Positions 54,403 through 55,814 of a stretch of DNA of 64,000 bases are shown here, one piece after another. The stretch is from a bacterium. GTDB lineage: Bacteria > Patescibacteriota > Minisyncoccia > Phycocordibacterales > CALRBL01. The stretch is from positions 47,270 to 111,269 of the forward strand of contig JAIYEG010000010.1 in NCBI GenBank assembly GCA_027487075.1, read 5' to 3'. The translations under genes and the position numbers were made by a program. Each line of letters starts with the position of its first letter. Position 1 is the first letter of the stretch. Below the pieces are notes generated by a model. That model was not told the origin of the DNA and did no database searches. It saw nothing but the letters and a program-made list of their open reading frames with translations.

Positions 54403-54717
54403 TCAGACGTTGCGGTTTTTCTTTTCAGGATTTTCAAGACTCTTCTTCCAGCCGCCAAACATCTTTCCGACCTCCTCAAGCTTTAGAGCGACATCCTCGC
54501 ACTGCTTGTTGGAGATGAGCTTACCTTCCCATGCGACTGATACCAGAAATTTTAGGGTGTCTAATACAAGAATACATTCACTGACCTTTTCCAGTTTCTT
54601 CTCCTTTTCAGTAAAATAGGCGGTGTATGACAATTCAAGTAGATCTAAGAAAGTGTTCTCGATTCGAGAACCAATCGTATACCTCGAACCTTTAGCAATA
54701 TGAGGAACGATATTCAC
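54403..54717 (-). CDS. avd: Avd-like four-helix-bundle accessory protein (DGR accessory variability determinant)
   Basis: IAKGSRY...FLDLLELSY...EVGKMFGGWKKSL matches the 'four helix bundle / 23S rRNA IVS protein' family (IAEG...F.RFL.IA.GS...EV.KML.GLIKKL). GTG start; the frame stays open upstream into the (GA)n tract. Confidence 0.7.
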   Translation of the reverse strand: MNIVPHIAKGSRYTIGSRIENTFLDLLELSYTAYFTEKEKKLEKVSECILVLDTLKFLVSVAWEGKLISNKQCEDVALKLEEVGKMFGGWKKSLENPEKKNRNV

Positions 54718-54765
54718 CCAGATCAGATATCCCTCTTTGACTCGATTCAGAATCGAGGCGGAATC

Positions 54766-54796
54766 GAGAGAGAGAGAGAGAGAGAGAGAGAGAGAG
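54766..54796. repeat. (GA)15 dinucleotide microsatellite between avd and the RT
   Basis: Perfect GAGAGA... run of 31 nt ending 4 nt before the RT ATG. Confidence 0.95.
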
Positions 54797-54800
54797 CGGA

Positions 54801-55814
54801 ATGCGGCCTGTTCATATCTACGATGATATCATTTCCGTCGAGAATTTGCTTAAGGCATGGCGAGAATTCCAGAAAGATAAAAGAAAACGCAAGGACGTGG
54901 AACGGTTCTCGGTTCACTTAACTGACAACATATTTGCCCTTCATAGGGAGTTAATGGACAAAACGTACCGACACGGCCCTTACAAAGCGTTCAAGATCAA
55001 TGACCCGAAGCCAAGAGATATTCATAAAGCTACGGTGCGAGATCGCTTGCTCCACCATGCGATCTATAGAATTCTTTACCCATACTTCGATCCGAAATTC
55101 ATCTTCGATTCTTTCTCATGCCGCCGTTCCAAAGGCACGCACCGAGCGATCAACCGCTTCCGTGATTATGCAAGAAAAGTTTCGCAAAATCACACTCGCA
55201 CTGTATGGGTGTTGAAGTGCGATATACGGAAATTCTTTGCCAATATCGACCATGCGATTTTAGAAGATATTTTAAGAAAGCGGATCGGCAATGAAGATGT
55301 CGTAATGCTTTTAAGCAGGGTCATCGAGAGCTTCAACACAAAAGGTAAGCTAGGCGTCGGACTTCCTTTGGGCAATCTGACCTCACAACTTTTGGTCAAT
55401 ATTTACATGAACGAATTTGACCATTTCTTGAAACGAAATTTGAAAATACAGTATTGCGTCAGATATGCCGATGATTTCGTCATCTTGCATGAAAACAAGA
55501 AATATCTGGAAAATATTCTGCCTCGGATATCAGAGTTTCTAGAGAGTAAATTGAGACTATCCTTGCATCCTGACAAAGTGTTCATGCGAACGATCGCCTC
55601 GGGAGTGGATTTTCTGGGATGGGTGCATTTTCCGCATCATCGGGTACCGAGGACATCGACCAGAAGGAGAATGTTAAAGAACCTGGCCAACAATCCGAAG
55701 GCGGGATCTCTGGCTTCGTATCAGGGGCTTTTGTCGCATGGAAATACGCACAAGCTACAAAAAGAGGTCGTTGATCGGAGCAAAACCGATCCCGCTAGGA
55801 ATAGGGGTTTATAA
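54801..55814 (+). CDS. DGR-type reverse transcriptase
   Basis: RT motifs 1-7: PKPRDIHKATVRDRLL, SFSCRRSKGTHRA, VLKCDIRKFFANIDH, LPLGNLTSQLLVNIYMNEFD (DGR hallmark LGxxxSQ), RYADDFVIL, SGVDFLGW. Confidence 0.9.
   Translation: MRPVHIYDDIISVENLLKAWREFQKDKRKRKDVERFSVHLTDNIFALHRELMDKTYRHGPYKAFKINDPKPRDIHKATVRDRLLHHAIYRILYPYFDPKFIFDSFSCRRSKGTHRAINRFRDYARKVSQNHTRTVWVLKCDIRKFFANIDHAILEDILRKRIGNEDVVMLLSRVIESFNTKGKLGVGLPLGNLTSQLLVNIYMNEFDHFLKRNLKIQYCVRYADDFVILHENKKYLENILPRISEFLESKLRLSLHPDKVFMRTIASGVDFLGWVHFPHHRVPRTSTRRRMLKNLANNPKAGSLASYQGLLSHGNTHKLQKEVVDRSKTDPARNRGL

Follow-up and report, generated by a model that had tools for sequence, protein, structure and literature searches.

A hypermutable GA repeat in the apparently overlapping 5' ends of avd and the reverse transcriptase gene as a candidate phase switch of a Patescibacteria diversity-generating retroelement

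What does a long, perfect dinucleotide repeat do between the 2 genes that encode the enzymatic machinery of a diversity-generating retroelement (DGR)? The question is raised by a 64,000-nt stretch of DNA from a bacterium of the Patescibacteriota (GenBank assembly GCA_027487075.1, contig JAIYEG010000010.1, positions 47,270 to 111,269; hereafter the window, with coordinates counted from its first nucleotide), in which a minus-strand avd gene and a plus-strand reverse transcriptase (RT) gene face away from each other across a GA tract. An earlier note on this DNA, made from the letters alone, had described a perfect 31-nt GA tract ending 4 nt before the RT start codon and had suggested that it is a slipped-strand switch of the diversification machinery. 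The description is accurate: the tract occupies positions 54766-54796, consists of 15.5 GA units with 100% matches according to both the sequence and Tandem Repeats Finder (TRF), and is followed by CGGA and then by the RT ATG at 54801. It is the sole dinucleotide array detected by TRF in the window, and a 12-nt GA pattern had 0 matches in 100 dinucleotide-preserving shuffles. In the RT sense the tract encodes (Glu-Arg)n, and in the avd sense (Leu-Ser)n. Having compared the locus with its relatives, we put at roughly 60% the probability that the tract is a slipped-strand contingency switch of reading frame, acting on Avd and, in most relatives, on RT.

The tract is embedded in a locus with the order target gene (minus strand), template repeat (TR, plus strand), hairpin with a T-run, avd (minus strand), tract and RT gene (plus strand). 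The 337-aa RT matches RVT_1 (PF00078, E = 1.3e-23) and scores far under the cut-offs of the group II intron, retron and Drt models, and the avd open reading frame (ORF) is above the cut-off of Pfam bAvd (54.2 bits versus 40; E = 2.4e-14) and under that of NCBIfam DivGenRetAVD (63.6 bits versus 80). Comparison of TR with the single variable repeat (VR) detected in the window revealed differences at 20 of the 35 TR adenines, and every mismatch within the homology falls on a TR adenine; the 5 non-adenine mismatches of the 134-nt TR/VR scan are all located at the 3' end, outside the homology. The locus combines an RVT_1-type RT next to the repeats, an adenine-confined TR/VR pair whose VR lies at the C-terminus of the 612-aa target ORF, and Avd; judging from the confinement of the TR-VR differences to adenines, the DGR is real and has been active.

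A protein search yielded 729 close Avd homologs, and all named ones are from the candidate phyla radiation (CPR)/Patescibacteria, whereas a scan of viral contigs with the Avd profile revealed no relatives. Many of the homologs have N-termini of the form MTRPHF-PLSLSLSL-DSASIL..., others carrying PPPP instead of the LS run. The comparison set consisted of 80 loci (one genome per species) and 80 metagenome loci, of which 132 contain the avd motif and 130 have enough upstream sequence. At the same place as in the window, 129 of these 130 loci, representing many CPR lineages and 116 distinct junction sequences, carry a tract which, read in avd orientation, is (TC)n, a C-run or a mixture of the two, with lengths ranging from 8 to 48 nt in the relatives and a median of 23 nt for pure (TC)n. 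Throughout, the tract separates the RT start region from the conserved avd codons, with its avd-proximal edge at a constant distance of approximately 21 nt before the Arg codon of the R-[IV]-K-E-G-Y motif. Few repeats of this kind occur elsewhere in these genomes: in 577 kb of related loci, there are 138 mono- and dinucleotide simple-sequence repeat (SSR) matches at the junction versus 12 elsewhere, and the junction repeats have only the periods 1 and 2, both of which are frame-shifting. The junctions of 5 loci (L021, L047, L064, L080, and L107) contain composite tracts of a C-run and (TC)n, for example TTCCCCCCCCCTCTCTC..., which would permit frame steps of 1 nt as well as 2 nt. A second long homopolymer is found a few kb off the junction in 3 loci, namely L011 (C14, approximately +3320 from the avd anchor), L026 (G10, +1568) and L049 (C8, +851). 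Avd itself is 70-90% identical at the protein level across very divergent CPR lineages, which suggests either strong constraint, including that on embedded antisense promoter or ORF elements, or horizontal spread of the cassette.

The place of the tract is conserved; its length is not. Groups of loci with identical 120-nt flanks contain tracts of 35, 27, and 31 nt, of 21, 19, and 17 nt, of 29 and 37 nt, and of 14 and 12 nt, and the G-run pair L086/L090 has 22 versus 13 nt. Between near-identical contigs (98.9-100% identity outside the tract, over 1.2-4.4 kb), the tract is the single gap: L108/L109 align over 1355 nt with 0 mismatches and one 8-nt gap, L110/L114 over 1406 nt with 0 mismatches and one 4-nt gap, L112/L114 over 1955 nt with 0 mismatches and one 2-nt gap, L050/L077 over 4419 nt with 21 mismatches and one 2-nt gap, and L133/L139 over 2302 nt with 18 mismatches and one 8-nt gap. 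In total, 5 groups, defined by identical 120-nt flanks or by 0-21 mismatches over 1.2-4.4 kb, vary at the tract only, and within the (TC)n groups all length differences are multiples of the 2-nt unit. The comparison of repeat numbers across related genomes that the earlier note had called for thus shows variation among relatives (not within this organism's own population), and its view of the tract as a hypermutable SSR is borne out by length differences that constitute the sole indel between contigs of near-identical relatives, at a conserved place in related DGR loci. Exact-protein look-ups of RT, avd and the protein P0022 in public assemblies, for copies of the same species with other repeat numbers, returned none, and the cluster of P0022 has one NCBI member.

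Whether such length changes matter depends on where avd starts. The mechanically called avd ORF begins at GTG 54717 and encodes 104 aa. The minus-strand frame had been noted earlier as an open N-terminal extension through the tract, and in this respect the observation stands, the frame reading ...FRSLSLSLSLSLDSASILNRVKEGYLIW-V with V being GTG 54717; the extension lacks, however, any start codon of its own, there being no ATG, GTG, or TTG in the avd frame from the upstream stop to 54717, and hence none on either side of the tract. Nevertheless, homology extends upstream of the GTG. The alignment to the NCBIfam Avd model begins at SIL..., 13 codons upstream of GTG 54717 and directly after the tract, and the A-S-I-L codons (third to sixth after the tract in the avd sense) have entropies of 0.79, 0.28, and 1.31 at codon positions 1, 2, and 3, respectively, a coding pattern. 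A conserved internal start was considered and rejected. Some 115-aa homologs have Met in place of an avd Leu; the Leu codon, being CTC or CTT in about half of the loci, cannot be a general start, and the V/M position corresponding to GTG 54717 is variable. Since the coding signature reaches up to the tract and no general internal start exists, translation of avd must enter from the tract.

The predicted structure of Avd points in the same direction. An AlphaFold (AF2) model built from 30 sequences, with a mean predicted local distance difference test score (pLDDT) of 76, is a helical bundle in which the first helix is ILNRVKEGYLIWVNIVPH and the (Leu-Ser)n part is disordered. With helix 1 placed there, the product initiated at GTG 54717 would miss 12 of the 18 predicted helix-1 residues, and the residues absent from it include 7 invariant ones (R, K, E, G, Y, L, and W). 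A fold search with the model retrieved Avd chains of phage BPP-1 as the top PDB entries, with weak scores (E of about 0.5-1), and a sequence search of the PDB with the Avd profile gave no matches. Collectively, the homology, the codon signature and the truncation of helix 1 agree with the proposal of the earlier note that the tract governs the N-terminus of Avd. The nearest minus-strand ATG (54815) lies beyond the tract and, in the window, in a different frame from avd. In the tract-less locus L035, the avd start is exactly the ATG homologous to 54815, in frame.

On the RT side, no stop codon interrupts the frame across the tract in 111 of 112 loci. Of the 112, 39, including the window, have a canonical in-frame RT start codon (ATG, GTG, or TTG) no more than 25 nt past the tract and 73 have none, and the RT residues HIY.. 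that follow the tract are conserved and codon-periodic also where the canonical start is missing. If RT starts are counted only where they lie upstream of the conserved HIY, 23 of 105 loci are left without any canonical one. A candidate upstream start is ATG 54700, from which an ORF runs for 66 nt to the tract and then reads through it, so that the same tract may gate both avd and RT. A TTG located 29 nt upstream of the tract is a possible RT start in the second phase; it is present in 26 of the 43 phase-2 loci, and its frame is not protected from stops over the 66-nt zone as a whole.

If both upstream ATGs are used, the extended avd and RT ORFs overlap head-to-head over 116 nt (54700-54815), and this overlap bears signatures of selection. 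The 2 His codons lying antisense to the proposed ATGs are CAT in 213 of 213 cases (RT His, 104/104; avd His, 109/109), as compared with 1077 CAT versus 706 CAC among the other His codons of the 2 genes. Over the 22 avd codons that separate 54700 from the tract, Leu is never encoded by TTA or CTA (0/246 versus 255/1285 in the remaining avd) and Ser is never encoded by TCA (0/144 versus 137/546), and because these codons are avoided the antisense frame stays open: from ATG 54700 to the tract, the codon-aligned antisense frame contains 0 stops in 2398 codons versus 358 in 8720 elsewhere. The 2 other antisense frames across the same avd zone do hold stops. Furthermore, conserved avd residues show a synonymous variability of 0.73 bits in the zone versus 1.25 bits outside, with the rise immediately past the avd His codon. 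The absence of antisense-stop codons, the suppressed synonymous variation and the invariant CAT are 3 independent signatures that the ORF starting at ATG 54700 is under selection.

The geometry of the overlap makes the consequences of a length change calculable. Each proposed ATG is antisense to a codon of the partner gene, so that the two are in frame if, and only if, avd and RT share the same codon phase, which is set by tract length. In an in-silico series of tracts of 25-37 nt for the window, full-length Avd and long RT ORFs were obtained at 29 and 35 nt only, with Avd of 136 and 138 aa (MNRPHSA(LS)nDSASIL...) and RT of 370 and 372 aa (MRNDIHPDQISLFDSIQNRGGI(ER)n..SGMRPVHIY...). At 31 nt, the length in the assembly, the extended ORFs are out of frame and encode 22 aa (avd) and 73 aa (RT). 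By this arithmetic, the window is in an OFF phase for Avd, and RT keeps its own ATG at 54801. Among the relatives, the 3 phases are represented by 25 (aligned), 37, and 43 of 105 loci (chi-square p = 0.09). In each of the 25 aligned loci, avd is intact and its in-frame start, the ATG homologous to 54815, lies upstream of the tract, whereas 73 of the 80 non-aligned loci lack a full-length avd start. Both states occur within near-identical groups, L112 being ON and L110 and L114 OFF, and likewise L118 ON and L109 OFF. As read from sequence, the locus displays several of the features by which phase variation is recognized: a non-triplet SSR within an open reading frame, a repeat number that varies between relatives while the flanks are conserved, and a predicted toggling between full-length and truncated ORFs with a change of repeat units.

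Promoter-like elements are found on the outer side of each proposed ATG. Upstream of the avd ATG, the motif TGnTAT[C/T]AT is recognizable, with the hexamer TAT[CT]AT in 67 of 109 loci and the preceding TGA in 84 of 109; in the window it forms part of a perfect palindrome within RT, in which the RT third codon positions are nearly invariant across the family. This element could be the avd promoter, giving a leaderless or near-leaderless mRNA, an assignment that we infer from its sequence and position. As a palindrome, ATGATATCAT offers an extended -10-like reading on both strands. On the other side, the best-conserved -10-like element for RT is TAAAAT (54612-54617), which 93 of 109 loci share at that position, some 150 nt before the tract; the avd Tyr-Phe codons beneath it display unusually low third-position variability. 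The suggestion that repeat changes would alter the spacing of an RT promoter or ribosome-binding site is not supported by the comparison, as the 3' edge of the tract keeps a fixed position relative to the RT ATG and the conserved TAAAAT lies upstream of both ATG 54700 and the tract. A role of the tract as a spacer within an RT promoter was likewise rejected, there being no -10 element between the tract and the ATG in the window and a conserved -10-like element approximately 150 nt upstream.

From these observations we infer that both ATGs and the promoter-like elements are used, that slippage causes the length changes, and that DGR activity is affected. In this Patescibacteria DGR clade, the divergent avd and RT genes would overlap head-to-head through their extended 5' ends (54700-54815). 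Avd would be translated from the minus-strand ATG 54815 through (UC)n, read as (Leu-Ser)n, and a long form of RT from the plus-strand ATG 54700 through (GA)n, read as (Glu-Arg)n. Replication slippage would move the locus between one ON and two OFF phases, in steps of 2 nt or, for the G-run variants, of 1 nt. At 31 nt, the window would yield no full-length Avd, just a peptide of 22 aa or, with initiation at GTG 54717, a product with a truncated helix 1. Its RT may still be produced from ATG 54801. Both long ORFs would open if the tract lost one GA unit or gained two. In the DGR of the Bordetella phage, Avd is required together with RT for cDNA synthesis (PMC6182149), and by analogy the switch should control, within a subpopulation of cells, whether the target gene is mutagenized. 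The most far-reaching form of this proposal, in which a single repeat serves as a bidirectional translational phase switch that turns both DGR enzymes ON together in 1 of 3 phases and enables CPR bacteria, clade-wide, to hedge their bets on the timing of hypermutation, is tentative, and we rate it at somewhat less than even odds.

Any other explanation has to accommodate the conservation and hypermutability of the tract, the coding and dual-coding signatures and the frame arithmetic, all of which are computational observations. The dual-coding signatures would be equally compatible with slippery decoding, whereby RNA polymerase slippage or ribosomal frameshifting at the tract produces a fixed in-frame minority, constitutively low and independent of the DNA length. 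That tracts are long (median 23 nt, maximum 48) and that frame states are uniform over the 105 loci, without enrichment of the in-frame state, would suit such a mechanism; however, some tracts comprise just 8-12 nt, (TC)5-6 or C8, where transcriptional slippage, documented mainly for A or T runs of at least 9, is unlikely, and the DNA length does change between near-identical genomes, which by itself would produce switching. We therefore regard slippery decoding as unlikely. Somewhat more doubtful still is a non-coding purine tract, that is, an expanded Shine-Dalgarno sequence or 5' untranslated region of RT drifting neutrally in length, with Avd starting downstream and the open frames being incidental. 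The tract is indeed rich in purines, in the window just 4 nt separate it from the RT ATG, a start just after the tract is present in 39 of 112 loci, the frame distribution is random, and the Met or TTG found at the Leu position of some homologs would give 115-aa forms. Yet the ASIL codons upstream of any candidate start look coding, the Leu codon is CTC or CTT in about half of the loci, and a canonical start in the first 25 nt past the tract is missing from 73 of 112 RTs; moreover, drift would leave unexplained the missing antisense-stop codons, the invariant CAT, the drop in synonymous variability that ends at the antisense ATG, and the exclusive occurrence of the frame-shifting periods 1 and 2.

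The ORF-level signatures and the tolerance of lengths from 8 to 48 nt are similarly unaccounted for if the tract is a structural element, a homopurine-homopyrimidine mirror repeat which, as H-DNA/triplex or as a polypurine tract for RT, modulates transcription or priming. Such a role would explain why only purine/pyrimidine-pure tracts, (GA)n and G-runs, are found although other dinucleotides would also be stop-free, and why the tract is located between divergent promoter-like elements; it could coexist with a frame switch, but as the whole explanation we consider it improbable. The least credible alternative in our judgement is decay or artefact, with assembly errors or with avd and RT as pseudogenes broken by repeat expansion. 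All data do come from metagenome assemblies, and full-length avd starts are missing from 73 of 105 loci and any RT start from 23 of 105. By contrast, the 70-90% identity of Avd across CPR reflects strong purifying selection in ON and OFF loci alike, the VR of the window carries adenine-specific differences from TR, and the tract recurs in independent assemblies with (TC)n length differences in multiples of 2. Thus, the non-coding tract, the structural element alone and decay or artefact all explain the ORF-level signatures poorly.

The contingency switch, too, has points that weigh against it. The aligned (ON) phase is represented by 25 of 105 loci, no more than expected by chance, which fits a neutral switch and equally a tract without frame constraint. 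In the window, RT may not be switched, having its own ATG after the tract. No Shine-Dalgarno sequence is present at either of the proposed ATGs, for which initiation rests on the evolutionary signatures and the -10-like motifs. The closest relative in a metagenome scan with RT is 80% identical, and the length variation recorded is that of relatives. The consensus of a metagenome-assembled genome could misreport tract length, yet errors would hardly produce differences of 4-8 nt in consistent multiples of 2. Finally, the compared sequences are mutually related and the Fisher p-values are nominal; the contrasts are absolute nonetheless.

The features discussed here are collected in Table 1. The hairpin that follows the TR resembles an intrinsic terminator for the TR transcript, which it would stop before an antisense run into avd, so that TR RNA and RT mRNA would be separate in this type of DGR. 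The 612-aa target protein has no Pfam or NCBIfam match. A tRNA-Arg (CCT) gene is located directly 3' of the RT stop codon (55871-55943, minus strand), and a tRNA gene is found at the equivalent place in 4 of the 38 related loci scanned (L004, 1785-1858; L021, 1767-1838; L074, 1823-1895; L078, 1783-1855), the identities being Ala, Gln, Gln, and Arg; this hints that the DGR cassette is sometimes placed beside tRNA genes, possibly through integration or mobility. In an Rfam scan of 52000-56000, only tRNA reached the gathering score of its family. Two neighbouring genes were recognized by eye. One is a 162-aa ORF (51217-51705, plus strand), possibly a fragment, which contains the Cys-rich motif CGLCGSG...YYGCCRF and looks like the C-terminal portion of a large serine recombinase. 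The other, just downstream of the DGR (56239-56784, minus strand), encodes a protein similar to type IV pilins, with GFTLIELLIV as its prepilin motif.

Table 1. Coordinates of the DGR features in the window, with the evidence for each or its proposed role.
Feature	Coordinates	Strand	Evidence or role
Variable repeat (VR), 3' end of the 612-aa target gene (52143-53981, -)	52154..52287	-	TR match
Template repeat (TR)	54251..54382	+	Alignment to VR
GC-rich hairpin and T-run, directly 3' of TR, over the avd stop codon (54403-54405)	54395..54425	+	Possible intrinsic terminator
Conserved avd coding body, D-S-A-S-I-L-N-R-V-K-E-G-Y... to the stop codon at 54403-54405	54403..54765	-	Pfam bAvd, NCBIfam Avd model
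-10-like TAAAAT in avd (antisense), 82 nt upstream of ATG 54700	54612..54617	+	Promoter scan; candidate RT promoter element
Proposed upstream start (ATG) of the long RT form, antisense of avd His in VPHI	54700..54702	+	In frame with RT at 29/35 nt
(GA)15.5 / (TC)15.5 simple-sequence repeat	54766..54796		Proposed frame-setting switch
DGR reverse transcriptase ORF, 337 aa, own ATG 4 nt past the tract	54801..55814	+	RVT_1 match
Proposed true avd start (ATG), antisense of RT His5 (CAT), in conserved ..HIY..	54813..54815	-	In frame at 29/35 nt, out of frame at 31
Palindrome ATGATATCAT, 10 nt, perfect, in RT codons 8-11; minus-strand reading TGATATCAT	54823..54832	-	Extended -10-like, ends 7 nt before the avd ATG

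Switches of this general type are well known from pathogens, among them those at the 5' CT dinucleotide repeats of sabA and hopZ in Helicobacter pylori. In oipA of the same species, slipped-strand changes in a CT repeat of the 5' coding region bring the gene in or out of frame, and both ON and OFF strains occur (PMC10564699). The oipA switch is mechanistically among the closest to the one proposed here, with a CT/GA tract just past the start codon and Leu-Ser repeats, but it concerns a pathogen surface protein and one gene per tract, whereas here the products would be mutagenesis enzymes of free-living or episymbiotic CPR bacteria, encoded by 2 divergent overlapping ORFs. Phase-variable methyltransferases (phasevarions), such as MmyCI of Mycoplasma mycoides with 12 AG repeats in its coding region (PMC3498834, PMC5909438), offer a second parallel. 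As in our case, an AG/GA SSR lies inside the ORF of a DNA-acting enzyme and forms a stochastic switch with genetic or epigenetic consequences; the tract of MmyCI, however, belongs to one gene and its output is a methylation pattern or regulon, whereas here the tract is common to two and the output would be targeted hypermutation. Joint control of 2 divergent genes by one dinucleotide SSR is found in hifA/hifB of Haemophilus influenzae, where a TA repeat lies between the -10 and -35 elements of overlapping promoters and acts on transcription. That switch works via promoters, whereas the GA tract is located downstream of both putative promoters, in overlapping ORFs, and would act on frame.

Among DGRs, the element of BPP-1 (mtd-avd-TR-brt) shares with the present one an RVT_1-type RT, an Avd-like four-helix bundle and a TR/VR pair with adenine-specific differences. 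In BPP-1, however, avd, TR, and brt are co-oriented and no SSR is present, whereas here avd is inverted between TR and RT and overlaps the latter 5' to 5' across the tract. Roux et al. described a cellular DGR clade restricted to Patescibacteria, clade 2 (PMC8144416), which plausibly corresponds to this family. Our literature search, which did not cover the paper of Paul et al. (2017) on CPR DGRs, found no paper tying DGRs to SSRs, phase variation or frameshift control. The switch would thus be familiar as a type; its place would be unreported and its arrangement, bidirectional and shared by overlapping genes, unusual.

How DGR activity is regulated is poorly understood, and surveys have classed many DGRs as "inactive" without explanation (PMC8144416). 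If the proposed switch is real, a stochastic, genome-encoded ON/OFF control acting on Avd and often on RT would provide a simple, testable rule for DGR activity in CPR bacteria, and tract length modulo 3 would become a practical marker to be correlated with VR diversity in existing metagenomes. It would also explain why avd and RT are frequently mis-annotated in this clade as truncated or startless. The switch would furthermore extend phase variation to ultra-small, uncultured, non-pathogenic bacteria; we know of no earlier report from such bacteria, although no search was aimed at this point. Two genes overlapping in antisense would have one common frame-setting repeat, and a stochastic mutator switch would be superimposed on a programmed mutator and kept across a whole DGR clade.

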